Shown here: one piece after another, positions 4,205-51,508 of the stretch | Layout of the letters: the number at the start of each line of letters is the position of its first letter | How positions within the stretch are numbered: the stretch's first letter is position 1 | NCBI RefSeq assembly: GCF_024502345.1 | Contig: NZ_JALDNN010000001.1 | Length of the DNA stretch: 64,000 nucleotides | From: Escherichia coli | GTDB taxonomy: Bacteria > Pseudomonadota > Gammaproteobacteria > Enterobacterales > Enterobacteriaceae | Direction: 5' to 3' (one strand) | Made by a program: the position numbers and the translations under genes | The notes under the pieces: generated by a model | Databases searched by the model: none | The model's input: only the letters and a program-made list of their open reading frames with translations | Told to the model about the DNA's origin: nothing

Positions 4205-6340
4205 TTATTCGATAAGGCTTTCTGAAGGGGTGATCAGTTGCGGGTTCAGGCAGCTTTCATAATAGGCCTGAATCTTCATCATGCGAGTGCGATGACGCTG
4301 GTAACGCCGCCAGGCCTGTACGCCATTGTAAATGGCGCTACCCAGCATCGTCAGTAGCAGCAGCGTGGTGCTGAGATAGCGCCACAGGCCGGAACGATCC
4401 GGGATCGGATGAAGGCCTATATGCTGCGTACCATTGGCGTTAGTGAAGATTTTTGTGACGATACCCTCGGCGTTAAACGGCGTATGCATCAGCATTTGTG
4501 CCAGTTTCTGGAAAGCGTTCCACTGTTCTTGCGGCGGGTAGTCGTAAAGTGATGCCGAAGGCCAGGGCTGATCAACAAAATCGCTGCCTTCGTCGCTGAC
4601 AATCAGGAATCCGCCGGGGGCCGGACTGTTTAGTGATTGTGCTGCTCGCGCCGTTTCATGCGTGATAAACGGCGCGGTGGAGGTTGCCACCAGGTTATCC
4701 AGCGATTCCGCACTCACCGGGCGTAATAACACATTCACGCCATCGAGCTTCCCGGCGTTGGCGCGTTTTACCAGCGCGTCCCAGTCTTTACTGTTGCCGA
4801 GATTGACCAGCGCATTTTTCAGTCGCACACAGTCATCTTTGGCAGAACACAGATCCGCTGTCTTCAGTACAATGTCGCCAAAATCATCAAGCAATACCAT
4901 GCCGGATTTTTGAATCGCTGAACGTAATGAGGCACTGACGCGAGATTCATCTTCCGGTTTAGGGTGCAGCTGGCGATTAACTGCTTCAGTCAATGCCGTC
5001 GCTTTGTTGACCAGCTCAGATTCTGGTAATGGTAATGAGCGGGCGTCATTCCAGATGATCTGCGAGCAGTCAAACGGTAAAAAAGGTGAATTGGTTTTCG
5101 CGCTCCAGGTTCCGGAAGTGCGAATATTACACATTCCCGTACCGCTAATACGCAATGTATCGCCTACCCGCACGCCAGCGTCAGCCAGTTGTTTTACGCT
5201 GGTGGCTTCAATGGTCTGCGCGCCTTTCATCCATGAGAGAGTGAATTTCAGCGGCATATCCAGCGGGATCCAGAATAACAGCATAAACAGCACCAGCAGC
5301 GAGCCCGCAGCGATAATCGTACTGCGCAGCCAGTGCTGTAACGGAAAGTTTTTTACTTCATCATGCAGCGAAAGATATCGTCCCTGACGCACTACATGGC
5401 GGTCGAGATAGATATCGATATCGGTTTGTTGACCGAGATCCTGAGCAATGTATGGCTGCCAGTGTGCGGGATAGACCAGGTCGATAATACCGAGTGAAAT
5501 ATTGTTGATCTGTTCCTGATCGTTTTCGCCAAACAATCCCCAACGACGGGGTGTACCGCGCAGACAATGAATTTCCCGCAGGGAGGATTTTGCCGGGGGG
5601 GCGAATAGCCCCCACAGACCTGCGCCCAGCAGCAGTAATGCGCCGCCTGCCAGCCACGGAACAAATACATCCGGGGTAATCAGGCAGAAAAAGAACATCA
5701 GAAAGGAGGCGACGATCAGCAACGCTTCACGCAGCCCGCGCGGACGACTCAGCGCATACTCTTCATGCGTTTCTTTGCGAATATTGAGTAGCTCGATTTG
5801 CTCACTCTCTTCCCCGCGAATCGACGCCTGCGTGGACGGAACAGGTTGCAAGGCATAGCCGCGCGTTTCCTGCATGTACTCCTGCAGCGTATGACCGTTG
5901 AGTGAAATAACCAACGGCAGCGAATCGGTATGAATCAGTTCAACGGTATTCTCATCGTTGATGTACTGTTCCCAGAAGGGGGGCAGGTGGACTTCTACCG
6001 AATCGAGGTAGTAACGCCATTTATTCGGATCGTCGGTAGAGATGCCGTAACGTGTGATAGCGTGTGTCAGCATCATGACGTTGTTGCTTTCGGCATTCAG
6101 CGCCAGAGAGATCGGTGCCGCGCTGGCTCCCGTTGGGCCAGGCACCTGTAATACCTGCGTCAGGCTCTCAAGATAATTTTCAACGGCGCTACGTTCTTCA
6201 GGTGTGAGTTTACGCGTTTGCGCATCCGCGAAGGCGTTGGTCCAGGGCAGCTGACGCCGTCTGGATCGCACTTTTATCAGCCATCCCGCAAGTAGTGAGC
6301 AGGCCAGCAAAGCAGCTAAAAAAATCACAATGGTGCTCAT
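4205..6340 (-). CDS. igaA: Inner-membrane regulator IgaA (negative regulator of the Rcs phosphorelay)
   Basis: 711-aa ORF with multiple hydrophobic segments, MSTIVIFLAALLACSLLAGWLIKVRSRRRQL... Confidence 0.92.
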   Translation of the reverse strand: MSTIVIFLAALLACSLLAGWLIKVRSRRRQLPWTNAFADAQTRKLTPEERSAVENYLESLTQVLQVPGPTGASAAPISLALNAESNNVMMLTHAITRYGISTDDPNKWRYYLDSVEVHLPPFWEQYINDENTVELIHTDSLPLVISLNGHTLQEYMQETRGYALQPVPSTQASIRGEESEQIELLNIRKETHEEYALSRPRGLREALLIVASFLMFFFCLITPDVFVPWLAGGALLLLGAGLWGLFAPPAKSSLREIHCLRGTPRRWGLFGENDQEQINNISLGIIDLVYPAHWQPYIAQDLGQQTDIDIYLDRHVVRQGRYLSLHDEVKNFPLQHWLRSTIIAAGSLLVLFMLLFWIPLDMPLKFTLSWMKGAQTIEATSVKQLADAGVRVGDTLRISGTGMCNIRTSGTWSAKTNSPFLPFDCSQIIWNDARSLPLPESELVNKATALTEAVNRQLHPKPEDESRVSASLRSAIQKSGMVLLDDFGDIVLKTADLCSAKDDCVRLKNALVNLGNSKDWDALVKRANAGKLDGVNVLLRPVSAESLDNLVATSTAPFITHETARAAQSLNSPAPGGFLIVSDEGSDFVDQPWPSASLYDYPPQEQWNAFQKLAQMLMHTPFNAEGIVTKIFTNANGTQHIGLHPIPDRSGLWRYLSTTLLLLTMLGSAIYNGVQAWRRYQRHRTRMMKIQAYYESCLNPQLITPSESLIE

Positions 6341-6659
6341 GCTTTCCCCATCTTACTTAGTCTGTCAGGCGTGGTCAGTCGCACCGGACACAATACATGA
6401 TTCTGCGGTTGGCTATCGGCAAGCGTGGAGTTTAACTTGAGCATCATTAAGCACATCACAGTAACCGCTGATCATAGCAAACCCTCTGAAGGCGGAATAT
6501 CAGCAAATTCCTGGAGTTATTTCAACCTATTGACTTTTAATTTGATTTGAGGACGATTATTTATTAAGTTACATAAATGTAAATAACATGCAATTCACAT
6601 TGCCGAAAGCGTGTCCGATATCGCACAATAACCGCTGATTTCACAGCATAGATCCCACG

Positions 6660-7220
6660 ATGAGCAAATCATTACAAAAACCCACCATTCTGAATGTTGA
6701 AACTGTAGCCCGTTCCCGACTGTTTACCGTCGAGAGCGTGGGTCTGGAGTTCAGCAATGGCGTGCGGCGTGTTTATGAACGAATGCGTCCAACCAACCGG
6801 GAAGCAGTGATGATTGTGCCGATTGTGGACGATCACCTGATCCTGATCCGCGAATACGCAGTGGGAACTGAATCCTACGAATTAGGTTTTTCGAAAGGAT
6901 TAATTGATCCGGGTGAAAGCGTCTACGAAGCCGCTAACCGCGAGCTAAAAGAAGAGGTTGGATTTGGTGCGAACGATCTGACTTTTTTGAAGAAGCTCAG
7001 CATGGCACCGTCTTACTTTTCCAGCAAAATGAATATCGTGGTAGCGCAAGATCTCTACCCGGAATCGCTGGAAGGCGATGAGCCAGAGCCGCTACCACAG
7101 GTGCGCTGGCCGCTGGCGCATATGATGGATTTGCTGGAAGACCCTGACTTCAACGAAGCGCGTAATGTCAGCGCGCTGTTCCTCGTGCGCGAATGGTTGA
7201 AAGGGCAGGGGCGAGTGTAA
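6660..7220 (+). CDS. nudE: ADP-compounds hydrolase NudE (Nudix family)
   Basis: 186-aa ORF; Nudix box region GLIDPGESVYEAANRELKEEVG. Confidence 0.92.
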   Translation: MSKSLQKPTILNVETVARSRLFTVESVGLEFSNGVRRVYERMRPTNREAVMIVPIVDDHLILIREYAVGTESYELGFSKGLIDPGESVYEAANRELKEEVGFGANDLTFLKKLSMAPSYFSSKMNIVVAQDLYPESLEGDEPEPLPQVRWPLAHMMDLLEDPDFNEARNVSALFLVREWLKGQGRV

Positions 7221-46044: not shown

Positions 46045-46677
46045 TTAACGAGTGCCGTAAACGACGATGGTTTTACCGTGTGCGGAGATCAGGTTCTGAT
46101 CTTCAAGCATCTTCAGAATGCGTCCCACGGTTTCACGAGAACAGCCGACAATCTGACCGATTTCCTGACGGGTAATTTTGATTTGCATACCGTCCGGGTG
46201 AGTCATAGCGTCTGGTTGTTTTGCCAGATTCAGCAGAGTCTGTGCAATGCGGCCCGTCACGTCGAGGAACGCCAGGTTGCCCACTTTCTCTGAAGTGACT
46301 TGCAGACGACGCGCCATCTGTGCAGACAGACGCATCAGAATGTCCGGGTTTACCTGAATCAATTGGCGAAATTTTTTGTACGAAATTTCAGCCACTTCAC
46401 AGGCGGTTTTCGCACGTACCCATGCGCTACGTTCCTGGCCCTCTTCAAACAGGCCCAGTTCGCCAATAAAATCACCCTGATTCAGATAGGAGAGGATCAT
46501 TTCTTTACCCTCTTCGTCTTTGATCAGCACTGCCACAGAGCCTTTAACGATGTAGTACAGCGTTTCCGCTTTTTCACCCTGGTGAATAAGCGTGCTCTTG
46601 GATGGGTACTTATGAATGTGGCAATGAGACAAGAACCATTCGAGAGTCGGGTCTGTTTGCGGTTTGCCAAGCACCAT
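46045..46677 (-). CDS. crp: cAMP receptor protein (catabolite activator protein)
   Basis: 210-aa [80 protein letters not shown]...[17 protein letters not shown]. Confidence 0.98.
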
Positions 46678-46978: not shown

Positions 46979-47383
46979 ATGCAAGCGCGAGTGAAGTGGG
47001 TCGAAGGGTTAACTTTTCTGGGCGAATCCGCCTCTGGTCACCAGATTTTAATGGACGGCAACTCAGGCGATAAAGCACCAAGTCCGATGGAAATGGTGTT
47101 GATGGCGGCGGGTGGTTGCAGTGCCATCGATGTGGTTTCGATCCTGCAAAAAGGGCGTCAGGATGTGGTCGATTGTGAAGTAAAATTGACCTCTGAACGC
47201 CGCGAAGAGGCACCACGCCTGTTTACGCACATTAATCTGCATTTTATCGTCACCGGTCGCGACCTGAAAGACGTAGCGGTTGCGCGTGCGGTTGATCTCT
47301 CTGCTGAGAAATATTGTTCAGTGGCGTTGATGCTGGAAAAAGCGGTGAATATTACTCACTCGTATGAAGTGGTTGCCGCGTGA
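46979..47383 (+). CDS. yhfA: OsmC-family protein YhfA
   Basis: 134-aa ORF MQARVKWVEGLTFLGESASGHQILMDGNSGDKAPSPMEMVLMAAGGCSAIDVVSILQK... Confidence 0.9.
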   Translation: MQARVKWVEGLTFLGESASGHQILMDGNSGDKAPSPMEMVLMAAGGCSAIDVVSILQKGRQDVVDCEVKLTSERREEAPRLFTHINLHFIVTGRDLKDVAVARAVDLSAEKYCSVALMLEKAVNITHSYEVVAA

Positions 47384-47437
47384 TTTAACTATCCCGTTGT
47401 GAAGCCGGATAGTATTTTATCCGGCGTAATAGCAGAG

Positions 47438-48307
47438 TTACTCGATTTTCTTTCCTTCCATCAATCGTTGCACCAGCGGCAGCATAATTAATTCCATTGC
47501 CAGACCCATTTTGCCGCCGGGCACCACTAACGTATTGATGTGGGAAATGAATGAGCCTTGCAACATCGCCAGCAGCCAGGGGAAATCGATCCCTTCCAGA
47601 TTACGAAAATGGATCACCACAAAGCTTTCATCCAGCGACGGGATACCTTTTGCCGCGAACGGGTTTGAAGTGTCGACGGTGGGAACGCGCTGGAAGTTAA
47701 GATGGGTGCGGGAAAACTGCGGTGTGATGTAGTTGATATAGTCTTCCATTGAACGCACTACTGAGTCCATCACTGCTTCTCGTGAGTGACCGCGCTCGCT
47801 GGTGTCGCGGATCAGTTTTTGAATCCACTCAAGGTTAACGATAGGCACCACGCCGACCAGTAAGTCCACATGCTGCGCAACGTTATGCTGTGGCGTGACT
47901 ACGCCGCCGTGTAAACCTTCATAAAACAGTACATCAGTGGGTTCTGGTAAAGGTTGCCAGGGGGTGAATGTTCCCGGTACCTGATTCCACGGTACGGCTT
48001 CATCGTAGGTATGCAGATATTTGCGAGATTTCCCTTTGCCGCTCTGACCGTATTCAATGAAGGTTTGTTCCAGCAGGCCGAAGTCGTTCGCTTCGGGGCC
48101 GAAGTAGCTGATATGCCGCCCGGCGTCGCGCGCTTTGCGGATCGCCATGTCCATTTCCGGGCGGGTGTAACGGTGAAAACTGTCGCCTTCCACCTCAGCT
48201 GCATGCAGATTTAACTGCGCGAATATTTTACGAAACGCGAGGCTGGTGGTGGTGGTCCCCGCGCCGCTGGATCCTGTTACCGCAATGACCGGATGTTTGG
48301 CAGACAT
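47438..48307 (-). CDS. prkB: Phosphoribulokinase homologue
   Basis: 289-aa ORF MSAKHPVIAVTGSSGAGTTTTSLAF... with P-loop. Confidence 0.92.
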   Translation of the reverse strand: MSAKHPVIAVTGSSGAGTTTTSLAFRKIFAQLNLHAAEVEGDSFHRYTRPEMDMAIRKARDAGRHISYFGPEANDFGLLEQTFIEYGQSGKGKSRKYLHTYDEAVPWNQVPGTFTPWQPLPEPTDVLFYEGLHGGVVTPQHNVAQHVDLLVGVVPIVNLEWIQKLIRDTSERGHSREAVMDSVVRSMEDYINYITPQFSRTHLNFQRVPTVDTSNPFAAKGIPSLDESFVVIHFRNLEGIDFPWLLAMLQGSFISHINTLVVPGGKMGLAMELIMLPLVQRLMEGKKIE

Positions 48308-48360
48308 AGTAACTCCATGACTTAGCTATCATTATTATCTCGTCCGCCGACGGTTGCAGG

Positions 48361-48579
48361 TTATTCGCGAAACTGACTGCGCGGCATAATATTGACCGTT
48401 TCGTGCAGCTCCGACCATACCAGCACCGCTTCTCCGCACTGTAGCTGGCGTTTGACGTCGGCGACTTTCTGTTCAAGTGTACGCTCATGTTCACCATAAT
48501 CGGTGCCTTCACGTAACACAAAGCTTTCAATTAAATTTTCCAGCGTTTCGGGGGAGAGGTCTTGCCACGGAATCAACAT
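48361..48579 (-). CDS. yheU: Small protein YheU
   Basis: 72-aa [75 protein letters not shown]. Confidence 0.88.
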
Positions 48580-49595
48580 GATTTCGCCTCCAGATACGTT
48601 GTTAACCAGTCAGGAATGCGTGACTCCAGCCACATTTGCGGATGAAGTAATGTACCGCCAATAAAGCCAACATGACCGCCATGTTCAGTCAGTTGATACT
48701 CCACCTGCGGGGGGAGACTTTCCGGTTTCGGGATCACCTGATGATCCATAAACGGATCGTCTTTGGCGTGAATAATCAGCGTCGGTTTGGCGATCCGATT
48801 GAGCATCGGCATGGCGCTACACTGACGATAATAGTCGATAGCGTCAGCGTAGCCGTGAATTCTGGCGGTGATGAGATCGTCAAATTCACGGATGCGACGT
48901 ACCGATTTTAACTGCGCGAGATTAATCGGCAGTGTTCCGGGGTAGGCTGCCAGCTTGCGCGCGGCATTGGCTTTTAACAGGTTCAGCAAGTAACGCTGAT
49001 AAACGCGGGAAAAGCCCTTTTCCATATGGTAACTACAGGCCTCCAGCATAAACGGCGCAGAGACAATCACCGCCGCATCAACCGGGAGATCATTGCCTTC
49101 TTTTGCCAGCAAACAGGCCAGCATATTACCGCCGAGCGAATAGCCGACGGCAGCCGTTGGCGCATGACCAAATTCGCGTTGCAGCCAGCGTAAAAACCAA
49201 CTGGCGTCTTCGGTTTCGCCCGAATGGTAAATGCGGTGCATACGGTTTGGTTCACCGCTGCATCCGCGAAAATGCATCACCACGCCCAGCCAGCCGCGCT
49301 TTTGCGCCGCCTCAACCAGACCGTGGGCGTAAGGGCTATTGAGACTGCCTTCCAGCCCGTGAAATACCACTAAACGCGGTTTATGCCGCGCCTGTGCAGG
49401 GTTTTCACTCCACGCGAGATCGACAAAATCGCCGTCGGGCAACTCCAGCCGCTGCCAGTACGGGGTGAATTTCACCTGACGACGAAACAGACGCGGCAGC
49501 ATAGTTTGTAGATGACAATTGCTAAAGCCGCGCATAGGGGTGAATTCAGCACTGCTGCTGAATTCATTGGCATCGGTCGTCGTTATCTGCGCCAT
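48573..49595 (-). CDS. yheT: Alpha/beta-hydrolase-fold protein YheT
   Basis: 340-aa ORF; GxSxG nucleophile elbow (VGYSLGGNM). Confidence 0.9.
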
Positions 49596-51508
49596 CAGTT
49601 GCTTTGGCCTTCCAGCAGCATCTGCTCAAGCTGCTCCTGGGCTTCCAGCCACGCCATTTCGCACTCTTCCAGGCCGGATTTGGCGCTGGCTTGCTGTTGC
49701 AGGCAGGCGGTCAACTCCGCTTTACGGCTCTGGTCATACAGTTCGCTGTCGCCGAGTTTCTCTTCCGCCTGCGCCAGTTGCGCGTTCAGCTTCTCCATCT
49801 CTTTTTCCAGACGGGCAATCTCTTTACGCAGTGGCTGGGTTTGCGCACGCAGCTCCGCTTCCCGGCGCTTCTGATCTTTACGTGCCTGGGCGCTGTTCGC
49901 GTTCTCTTTTGGCGCTTCGTCGGTCTGGTTTTCCTGCTTTTGTACGTCGCTCAACCACTGTTGATAATCTTCCAGATCGCCGTCGAACGGTTCGACTTTA
50001 CGATCGTGAACCAGGTAGAGGTCGTCAGTGGTGGAACGCAGCAAATGACGGTCGTGCGAAACGACAACCAGCGCGCCTTCAAACTCGATTAATGCTTCGG
50101 TGAGTGCCTGACGCATGTCGAGGTCAAGGTGGTTAGTCGGTTCGTCGAGCAGCAGCAGATTCGGCCGCTGCCAGACAATTAATGCCAGCACCAGGCGGGC
50201 TTTTTCCCCACCTGAGAAGCGGCGCGTTTCTTCGGTTACTTTATCGCCCTGGAAACCAAAGCCGCCGAGGTAGTCACGCAGTTTTTGCTCCAGTTCCTGC
50301 GGTGCTAAACGTGCCAGATGTTGAATAGGCGATTCGTCGGCGCGCAGGTATTCAAGTTGATGCTGGGCGAAGTAGCCGAGCTTGATCCCTTTCGCCAGAC
50401 CAATTTCTCCGCTGACAGGCGCAAGTTCGCCAGCTAACAGTTTGATTAATGTCGATTTACCCGCGCCGTTGCGGCCTAACAGACCAATGCGCGAGCCGGG
50501 GACCAGATTCAATTTAATTGAGTCGAGAATAATGCGATCGCCATAGCCCGCGCTGACTTTTTCCATCTTCAGTAACGGATTTGGCAGGCTTTCCGGCGCG
50601 CGGAAGCTAAAGCGGAACGGGTTGTCGACGTGCGCGGGGGCAATCAGCTCCATACGCTCGAGCATCTTAATGCGGCTCTGGGCCTGCTTCGCTTTGGTGG
50701 CTTTGGCACGGAAACGGTCGATATAACTTTGCAGATGCGCTACGCGTTCCTGCTGGCTTTCGTACATCGCTTGTTGCTGCGCCAGACGGGTGGCGCGCTG
50801 TACTTCAAACGAACTGTAGTTGCCGGTGTACTCGAACATGCTTTGTTGTTCGATATGAATAATTTTATCGACGATCGGATCGAGGAAGTCGCGGTCGTGA
50901 GAGATCAGGATCAGCGTGCCCTGATAGCTCTTCAGCCATTTTTCCAGCCAGATAACGGCATCGAGATCGAGGTGGTTAGTCGGTTCGTCGAGCAGCAGCA
51001 ATTCTGAACGGCAAATCAGCGCCTGGGCAAGGTTAAGACGCATACGCCAGCCCCCGGAAAAATCACTTACCGGGCGCTCCAGTTGTTCATTGCTGAAACC
51101 GAGGCCGTGCAGCAGGCTGGCGGCACGGGAGCGAATACTCCATGCGTCAATAGCATCCAGCTTGCCATGAATGGTCGCAATGGCATGCCCGTCGTTACGT
51201 TCGTTGGCGTCGTGCAACTGCGCTTCCAGTTGACGATATTCACGGTCGCCGTCAATGACATATTCCAGCGCCGCTTGCGGTAACGCCGGCGTTTCCTGAT
51301 TCACCCACGCCAGTTGCCAGCTTCCCGGAAAGGTGTAGCTGCCGCCGTCGGCGCTGATTTCATTTTTCAGCAATGCCAGCAGGGTAGATTTACCACAGCC
51401 GTTTTTACCCACCAGGCCGACTTTCTGCCCGGGGTTGATGGTGGCGGTGGCATTATCCAGCAGGACGCGCACGCCGCGACGAATTTGTAACGAGGAGAAA
51501 ACAATCAT
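49595..51508 (-). CDS. yheS: ABC-F family ATPase (two ABC domains, no TM domain)
   Basis: 637-aa ORF; two Walker A boxes (GLVGKNGCGKST, GLLGRNGAGKST), two LSGG signatures, coiled-coil C-terminus. Confidence 0.93.
   Translation of the reverse strand: MIVFSSLQIRRGVRVLLDNATATINPGQKVGLVGKNGCGKSTLLALLKNEISADGGSYTFPGSWQLAWVNQETPALPQAALEYVIDGDREYRQLEAQLHDANERNDGHAIATIHGKLDAIDAWSIRSRAASLLHGLGFSNEQLERPVSDFSGGWRMRLNLAQALICRSELLLLDEPTNHLDLDAVIWLEKWLKSYQGTLILISHDRDFLDPIVDKIIHIEQQSMFEYTGNYSSFEVQRATRLAQQQAMYESQQERVAHLQSYIDRFRAKATKAKQAQSRIKMLERMELIAPAHVDNPFRFSFRAPESLPNPLLKMEKVSAGYGDRIILDSIKLNLVPGSRIGLLGRNGAGKSTLIKLLAGELAPVSGEIGLAKGIKLGYFAQHQLEYLRADESPIQHLARLAPQELEQKLRDYLGGFGFQGDKVTEETRRFSGGEKARLVLALIVWQRPNLLLLDEPTNHLDLDMRQALTEALIEFEGALVVVSHDRHLLRSTTDDLYLVHDRKVEPFDGDLEDYQQWLSDVQKQENQTDEAPKENANSAQARKDQKRREAELRAQTQPLRKEIARLEKEMEKLNAQLAQAEEKLGDSELYDQSRKAELTACLQQQASAKSGLEECEMAWLEAQEQLEQMLLEGQSN

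Follow-up and report, generated by a model that had tools for sequence, protein, structure and literature searches.

The DNA analyzed here, a window of 64,000 nucleotides, includes an E. coli-type chromosome segment with the gene order argD, yhfK, crp, yhfA, prkB, yheU, yheT, yheS, kefG and kefB (Table 1). The preliminary description had placed prkB at 47438-48307, and this interval is exactly the 289-codon open reading frame (ORF) of the minus strand, which starts with ATG, ends with TAA and encodes 289 aa. It had also named an OsmC-like protein, a 72-aa protein, an alpha/beta hydrolase and an ABC-F ATPase as the neighbors, which profile matches identify as YhfA, YheU, YheT and YheS, respectively. 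Over 1.8 kb, the prkB region is 99.7% identical to E. coli chromosomes, in which the genes are annotated as prkB, yhfA, yheU and yheT, and a search of 5426 complete E. coli genomes found the region in 5425; this agreement goes far beyond chance. Both gene and annotation are already known, and the locus is not a new kind of system; in a proteomics table of 2024, the protein carries the UniProt label 'Probable phosphoribulokinase' (P0AEX5; PE=3, inferred from homology). Our analysis adds that catalytic residues are fully retained, how strong purifying selection is, that the yheT-yheU-prkB-crp block is old and fixed, that an arginine cluster has decayed, and that a serine in the lid is diagnostic of the clade.

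Table 1. Features of the prkB locus, with positions counted in the 64,000-nucleotide window.
Feature	Position	Strand	Basis
crp, co-oriented with prkB and downstream of it	46045..46677	-	ORF list
yhfA, OsmC-like, PF02566, 134 aa; convergent with prkB, divergent from crp	46979..47383	+	ORF list, profile matches
Hairpin in the convergent yhfA/prkB spacer	47396..47433	.	RNA fold
prkB CDS, class I (bacterial-type) phosphoribulokinase homologue	47438..48307	-	ORF, Pfam, NCBIfam, PDB 1a7j, AF2 model
Lid segment, codons K164-S186 (KLIRDTSERGHSREAVMDSVVRS)	47750..47818	-	translation and column statistics
P-loop, codons G12-S-S-G-A-G-T-T-T20 (lysine-less Walker A typical of class I PRK)	48248..48274	-	translation
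yheU-prkB spacer, 53 bp	48308..48360	.	promoter, CRP and terminator scans; cross-genus comparison
Shine-Dalgarno GGAG, 5 nt upstream of the prkB ATG	48313..48316	-	spacer sequence
yheU, UPF0270, 72 aa; directly upstream of prkB	48361..48579	-	ORF list, profile matches
yheT, alpha/beta hydrolase, 340 aa; stop overlaps the yheU start	48573..49595	-	ORF list, profile matches
yheS, ABC-F ATPase, 637 aa; first in the co-oriented run yheS-yheT-yheU-prkB	49595..51508	-	ORF list, profile matches

The spacer between yheU and prkB contains neither a sigma-70-like promoter nor a terminator-like site, and no CRP-like site within 2 mismatches was found in it; across the whole window, CRP-like sites numbered 28 against 25 expected, which is the chance level. 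When the spacer was compared between genera, a purine-rich Shine-Dalgarno region recurred and the rest was not conserved. A promoter of its own or control by CRP was considered for prkB and rejected, as the spacer lacks such sites. In a study of ABC-F paralogues, yheT, yheU and prkB were treated as co-cistronic with yheS (bioRxiv 10.1101/2023.06.11.543863). This treatment and the lack of signals in the spacer together suggest that prkB is probably the last gene of a yheS-yheT-yheU-prkB transcript. Beyond the prkB stop codon, the convergent spacer toward yhfA can fold into a hairpin (-19.5 kcal/mol as plus-strand RNA and -15.0 as minus-strand RNA) that has no U-tract and was not called by the terminator scan; it is possibly a bidirectional 3'-end structure. 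An Rfam scan of the whole window returned no family at threshold. The protein itself has been detected in the proteome of E. coli BW25113, at low intensity and with 5 peptides; the PrkB intensities are about 1.3-2.6e7, as compared with about 1.6e8 for UvrD and about 2e9 for LeuA.

Scanning one genome per species yielded at least 598 confirmed relatives of PrkB, and the best 80 of these were used for the comparison of loci. These 80 show 74-99% protein identity and come from Enterobacterales, Aeromonadales and Vibrionales. In 74 of the 80 related loci, yheU lies on the same strand directly upstream of prkB at a distance of 23-323 bp (median about 70), and crp lies on the same strand downstream of prkB in 75, four of the five exceptions being loci that end too soon. 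In 72 of the 80, yhfA separates prkB from crp and is encoded on the other strand; some loci of Vibrio, Budvicia and Xenorhabdus are without yhfA, and there prkB directly precedes crp. The prkB gene has been passed on vertically within a fixed yheT-yheU-prkB-(yhfA)-crp block from the ancestor shared by Enterobacterales, Aeromonadales and Vibrionales. No cbb genes occur among the ORFs around prkB or in the 80 related loci. Two genera carry extra genes between prkB and yhfA, namely two small lipoprotein-like ORFs in Aeromonas and genes for an amidohydrolase, an MFS transporter and a LysR protein in Serratia; we considered these as linked users of ribulose 1,5-bisphosphate (RuBP), an idea that we rejected, as they look like unrelated insertions.

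The coding sequence of prkB is under very strong purifying selection. Pairwise comparison with ten Enterobacteriaceae gave a dN/dS of 0.024 for prkB, the second-lowest value locally after crp (0.003) and followed by yhfA (0.030), argD (0.054) and yheT (0.081); dS was near saturation in these comparisons, so that all of the values are rough. Over larger distances, the median identity of E. coli PrkB to its Vibrio and Aeromonas orthologues is 75-77%, and the corresponding medians are 50% for YheT, about 60% for YheU and YhfA, 66% for YheS, 58% for ArgD and KefB, and 89-95% for Crp. Moreover, in Ca. Pantoea persica, a symbiont with a reduced genome, prkB is intact at 289 aa, and no full match to yheT or yhfA was found in this genome.

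PrkB matches the Pfam model of the PRK/uridine kinase family (PF00485) with E = 1.3e-76 and 257.3 bits (cut-off 22), and the NCBIfam equivalog 'phosphoribulokinase' (NF011997) with 524.7 bits (cut-off 362) over residues 1-288. Its earlier placement in the P-loop phosphoribulokinase/uridine-kinase family thus holds at scores above both curated cut-offs. Against R. sphaeroides phosphoribulokinase (PRK; PDB 1a7j), phmmer gave E = 7.8e-94 over residues 1-288, with 50% identity. An AF2 model of PrkB, built on a 31-sequence alignment, has a mean pLDDT of 92.3 and superposes on 1A7J with TM scores of 0.91/0.94 and an rmsd of 1.8 A over 285 columns, the C-terminal domain included. In the structural ranking for this model, class II PRKs and uridine kinases follow far behind 1A7J. 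The class II PRKs of cyanobacteria, plants and archaea (6H7G, 6HZK, 5B3F and 9QKO) belong to the same Pfam family as PrkB and share with it the P-loop kinase core and the Arg/Asp/Arg lid motif for ribulose 5-phosphate (Ru5P), whereas their identity to PrkB is only 18-23%, their TM scores are 0.5-0.66, and their C-terminal domain and dimeric assembly differ; regulation of class II enzymes is by redox state and CP12. Uridine/cytidine kinases (Udk, UCK2) have the PF00485 P-loop kinase core in common with PrkB, but the structural match covers about 200 residues at TM 0.4-0.5, and PrkB adds a PRK-specific C-terminal domain and the Ru5P residues. We considered PrkB as a uridine kinase and rejected this identity, its scores being 27.5 bits with NF004018 (cut-off 180) and 22.7 bits with TIGR00235 (cut-off 220.3).

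A tblastn search of plasmids with PrkB retrieved PRK genes located within complete cbb operons. PrkB is 58.7% identical to CbbP of C. necator H16 pHG1, which is encoded in a cbbLSX-rpe-fbp-prk-tkt operon and flanked by the genes of the large and small RuBisCO subunits, cbbX, rpe, fbp, tkt, gph, gap, pgk and fba. With the PRK of an Acidovorax cbb operon PrkB shares 61% identity, and 55-60% with the corresponding PRKs of Paraburkholderia, Azoarcus, Afipia, Nitrobacter and a Mycobacterium plasmid. The cbb-linked PRKs are 53-90% identical among themselves, a range into which the identities of PrkB to them fall, so that PrkB has not diverged from this set further than its members have from each other. 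In a neighbour-joining tree, the PrkB sequences group as a single clade next to the cbb-linked PRKs, and the stem of this clade is not unusually long. Among more distant PRK representatives, P0129 is linked to RuBisCO, and P0126 and P0133 are without cbb genes in the flanks that were read.

The alignment comprised 30 heterotroph-type PrkB sequences, 9 PRKs whose genes adjoin those of RuBisCO or other cbb genes, 1A7J, and another 9 cluster representatives. Twelve positions, in R. sphaeroides (Rs) numbering S14, T18, D42, H45, R49, H100, E131, K165, R168, D169, R173 and R186, are invariant in the 30 heterotroph-type and the 9 cbb-linked sequences. They comprise, within the GSSGAGTTT ATP site, S14 and T18, together with E. 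coli (Ec) E130 (Rs E131); the catalytic residues Ec D42, K164 and D168 (Rs D42, K165 and D169); and the Ru5P-binding residues Ec H45, R49, H99, R167 and R172 (Rs H45, R49, H100, R168 and R173). The lid segment combines conserved catalytic and Ru5P residues (K164, R167, D168 and R172) with the clade-specific H174 and S186. The roles given to Rs D42, E131 and D169 reportedly go back to Charlier et al. 1994. To judge from the titles of the Miziorko/Harrison mutagenesis series listed in PMC5241800, K165 is catalytic and invariant basic residues bind Ru5P, and further titles of the series name invariant arginines of the mobile lid, a histidine of the mobile loop and the P-loop Ser/Thr; Runquist et al. 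1999 likewise name the role of K165 in their title. In plant PRK, which agrees with this picture, the equivalent residues Arg64, Tyr103 and His105 hold a sulfate at the position of the Ru5P phosphate, and Arg159, Asp160 and Arg164 are lid residues for Ru5P binding and catalysis (bioRxiv 10.1101/422709).

Because the catalytic, P-loop and Ru5P-binding residues are invariant, the simplest reading is that PrkB would be a real PRK, one that continues to bind a ketose 5-phosphate and to transfer phosphate to its C1 hydroxyl. We strongly favor Ru5P as the probable substrate in vitro. As judged from its sequence and its predicted structure, PrkB is a class I phosphoribulokinase (EC 2.7.1.19) with respect to family models, fold, ATP site, catalytic residues and Ru5P site. 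With the class I CbbP/PrkA enzymes (1A7J; C. necator CbbP), it shares the predicted fold, the lysine-less P-loop, the Walker B Glu, the catalytic Asp/Lys/Asp and the Ru5P-binding His/Arg residues. These enzymes are encoded in cbb operons of hosts that possess RuBisCO, whereas neither applies to PrkB.

Against this background of retention, PrkB differs from the class I enzymes of the Calvin cycle at two sets of positions. The first is a group of arginines (Rs 30, 31, 221, 234 and 257) that is invariant or nearly so in the cbb-linked enzymes but variable in the PrkB clade. Arg is present at Rs 31, 221, 234 and 257 in 9/9 cbb-linked PRKs and at Rs 30 in 8/9. In the PrkB clade, Rs 31 is Q, L or M in 30/30 sequences, Rs 30 is A, Q, H or N, and Rs 221 is mostly K; Rs 234 and 257 have remained R in Vibrio and Aeromonas, and are H or other residues in most Enterobacterales. 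The arginine cluster is thus constrained in the Calvin-cycle enzymes and relaxed in the heterotroph clade. Type I PRKs have been described as octamers that NADH activates and AMP inhibits. The five arginines presumably correspond to the NADH/AMP effector site that was reportedly described by Kung et al. 1999.

The second set consists of four substitutions that are fixed throughout the PrkB clade (Rs H69Y, L76D, Y175H and R187S), two of which are located in the substrate-binding lid; Y175H lies two residues past the Ru5P-binding R173. At Rs 187, Ser is present in 30/30 PrkB sequences and Arg in 9/9 cbb-linked PRKs. Among the 108 cluster representatives that cover this position, 84 have Arg and 13 have Ser, all of the latter being PrkB-like, and the equivalent residue is Arg in the cyanobacterial and Chlamydomonas class II PRK structures. 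R187 is presumably a lid arginine that affects the handling of ATP, as reportedly found by Runquist et al. 1998.

The metabolic setting of PrkB is one in which RuBP is regarded as foreign. The conserved neighborhood of prkB in the 80 related loci holds no RuBP consumer, and we know of no RuBP-consuming enzyme in E. coli. A plasmid collection, into which enterobacterial chromosomes can be misfiled, was screened for RuBisCO or RuBisCO-like genes; 60 of 374 matches were sampled, and no record of Escherichia, Klebsiella, Proteus or Aeromonas was among these 60. E. coli is without a Calvin cycle, and in work on RuBisCO-dependent E. coli strains RuBP is stated to be neither made nor needed natively, and a heterologous prk is always added (PMC10942610; bioRxiv 10.1101/2024.05.15.594374); this argues for a negligible native RuBP flux under laboratory conditions. 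The metabolite tables of PMC10942610 do not include RuBP. In the same literature (PMC10942610 / bioRxiv 10.1101/2024.05.15.594374), Synechococcus Prk was toxic in E. coli even when weakly expressed, and detuned active-site mutants of it were tolerated.

Our preferred reading, to which we assign a probability of roughly 0.6, is that PrkB would be a true but deregulated Ru5P kinase that produces RuBP at low flux. PrkB would transfer the gamma-phosphate of ATP to the C1-OH of D-ribulose 5-phosphate, yielding RuBP. The enzyme may have descended from a Calvin-cycle cbbP and, along this line of descent, would have lost the arginine cluster of the presumed effector site; the near-universal lid arginine of PRKs would have been replaced by serine, and the enzyme would probably have been slowed. 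Given the loss of the cluster and the Arg-to-Ser change in the lid, PrkB would probably be an unregulated, kinetically 'detuned' PRK with a low output of RuBP. A PRK of low activity and low abundance could be tolerable to the cell, which would fit both the toxicity of highly active heterologous PRKs and the scarcity of the PrkB protein. Candidate fates of the RuBP are service as a regulatory ligand, passage through an unrecognized route as an intermediate, and turnover by bisphosphatases. We also considered the conversion of RuBP to a phospho-AI-2-like diketone via beta-elimination and set it aside, as our own stereochemical considerations predict a product that is the mirror image of natural P-DPD. 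A more far-reaching proposal, which we put forward only tentatively and regard as less likely than not, is that the three orders purposely make RuBP, or a close ketose bisphosphate, with a PRK that has shed its control, for a RuBisCO-independent use as a regulatory ligand or as an intermediate of an undescribed route.

PrkB might instead have retained the PRK scaffold and the phosphate pocket and come to act on another phosphorylated ketose or metabolite, such as xylulose 5-phosphate, sedoheptulose 7-phosphate, or a deoxy- or hexulose phosphate, or to use another phosphoryl donor. We consider such a change of function rather unlikely. The clade-fixed substitutions speak for it: the four residues separate PrkB from all of the cbb-linked PRKs, and two of them (Y175H and R187S) lie in the substrate-binding lid, so that an altered acceptor or donor is possible. 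The confinement of Ser at Rs 187 to PrkB-type sequences among the 108 representatives (84 with Arg), and the Arg at the equivalent position in the alignments of cyanobacterial and Chlamydomonas PRKs, point the same way, as do the lack of a RuBisCO partner and the statement that E. coli does not make RuBP natively. However, all of the known residues that bind Ru5P and catalyze the transfer are invariant, the divergence between PrkB and the cbb PRKs is no larger than that among the cbb PRKs, and no neighboring gene points to another sugar pathway. We retain the reading of PrkB as a probable deregulated Ru5P kinase as the best explanation.

Much less probable is that PrkB serves mainly as a binding or regulatory protein, for instance in the sensing of pentose phosphates or adenylates or as a partner of YheU, YheS or CRP-related functions, with its kinase chemistry being secondary. 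The general base, the Walker B residue and the P-loop Ser/Thr are fully invariant over three orders, as expected of an active enzyme and not of a pseudoenzyme; the tight and ancient linkage to yheU and crp, which would otherwise suit such a role together with the scarcity of the protein and the loss of the arginines presumed to form the canonical effector site, is weak evidence because long syntenic blocks are common among these orders. That prkB is an evolutionary relic of an ancestral Calvin-cycle operon, without present function, is scarcely credible despite the lack of a known use of RuBP in these bacteria and the isolation of prkB from other cbb genes: prkB is a functional gene and not a relic because its dN/dS is low (0.024), it is conserved over three orders (74-99% protein identity among the best 80 relatives), 5425 of 5426 E. 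coli genomes carry it, a genome-reduced symbiont retains it intact, and its protein is detected.

These considerations bear on E. coli as a host for synthetic metabolism. In E. coli and its relatives, prkB belongs to the core genes; it is better conserved than neighbors such as argD and has no assigned role, and engineers of CO2-fixing E. coli treat RuBP as both foreign and toxic. If PrkB makes RuBP natively, then RuBP would be a native E. coli metabolite, contrary to the assumption made in synthetic autotrophy; this would bear on RuBisCO-selection strains with respect to background RuBP, escape routes and the regulation of toxicity, and would point to an unrecognized use of a 'photosynthetic' metabolite by heterotrophs. 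If the substrate of PrkB is new, the protein would be a clean case of an enzyme recruited out of a lost pathway. In either event, PrkB presents a modest but real puzzle in a model organism, and from the residues retained, this puzzle would concern the physiological role and the fate of RuBP rather than the substrate in vitro.

In the literature, mainly open-access PMC and bioRxiv, we found no biochemical or genetic study of enterobacterial PrkB and no substrate assignment, and a paper in a subscription journal is possible. The view of the preliminary description that the physiological substrate of PrkB is unresolved accordingly stands after a search for a published assignment in this mainly open-access literature, and it agrees with the PE=3 status in UniProt. 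The name 'prkB', where it appears in the literature, mostly denotes the gene of the R. sphaeroides cbb II operon or an entry in metagenome gene lists.

The conserved core of the prkB block is yheT-yheU-prkB-crp and yhfA is a variable insertion in it, because yhfA is missing from the corresponding loci of Vibrio (L076, L079), Budvicia (L058, L059) and Xenorhabdus (L056). At these loci, crp lies directly downstream of prkB on the same strand, separated from it by a gap of approximately 230-430 bp. The reduced-genome symbiont Candidatus Pantoea persica (L032) retains an intact prkB (6001-6870; 289 aa, 90% identical); in this genome, the search recovered just a fragment of yheU, and neither yheT nor yhfA gave a full-length match.

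PRK homologues sharing 49-53% identity with PrkB were found in marine metagenome contigs (L082-L084) and at two further loci (L086-L087). These proteins carry Arg at the lid position (Rs R187), and their genes adjoin a leuS/uvrD or a YkuD/pseudouridine synthase neighbourhood, with no cbb genes within 6 kb. Thus, PRKs without cbb genes within that distance also occur beyond the PrkB clade.

RNA folding placed a hairpin of -19.5 kcal/mol between the convergent yhfA and prkB genes; its inner stem is GCCGGATAG/TTATCCGGC, it lacks a U-tract on both strands, and it is absent from the terminator scan calls. The Rfam scan of window 1-64000 returned zero families at the gathering threshold. Antisense to prkB, CTTCCAGATTACGAAAATGGA is prkB-as, a TadA-dependent A-to-I editing site reported from E. 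coli K-12 (NC_000913.3:3485194), where the editing level is 0-6%. This editing site, on the + strand, implies that an antisense transcript spans the 3' part of prkB.

Features at and around prkB (window coordinates)
Feature	Position	Strand	Detail
yhfA/prkB spacer hairpin	47396-47433		
prkB-as editing site	47592-47612	+	CTTCCAGATTACGAAAATGGA
Edited A of prkB-as	47603	+	within CTTCCAGATTACGAAAATGGA
Further TTACGAA motif	48226-48232	+	
yheT/yheU stop-start overlap	48573-48579		7 nt
yheS/yheT stop-start overlap	49595		1 nt
kefG/kefB stop-start overlap	52190		1 nt

'Plasmid' matches for chromosomal genes such as prkB are inflated, since PLSDB lists as plasmids some entire chromosomes, 4-5.4 Mb in size, that belong to E. 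coli, Klebsiella, Proteus and Aeromonas (NZ_CP141089.1, NZ_CP134663.1, NZ_OL790696.1, CP125156.1, NZ_OL790811.1 and NZ_AP026896.1). Within the window, the overlap of stop and start codons suggests translational coupling inside the yheS/yheT/yheU and kefG/kefB runs.
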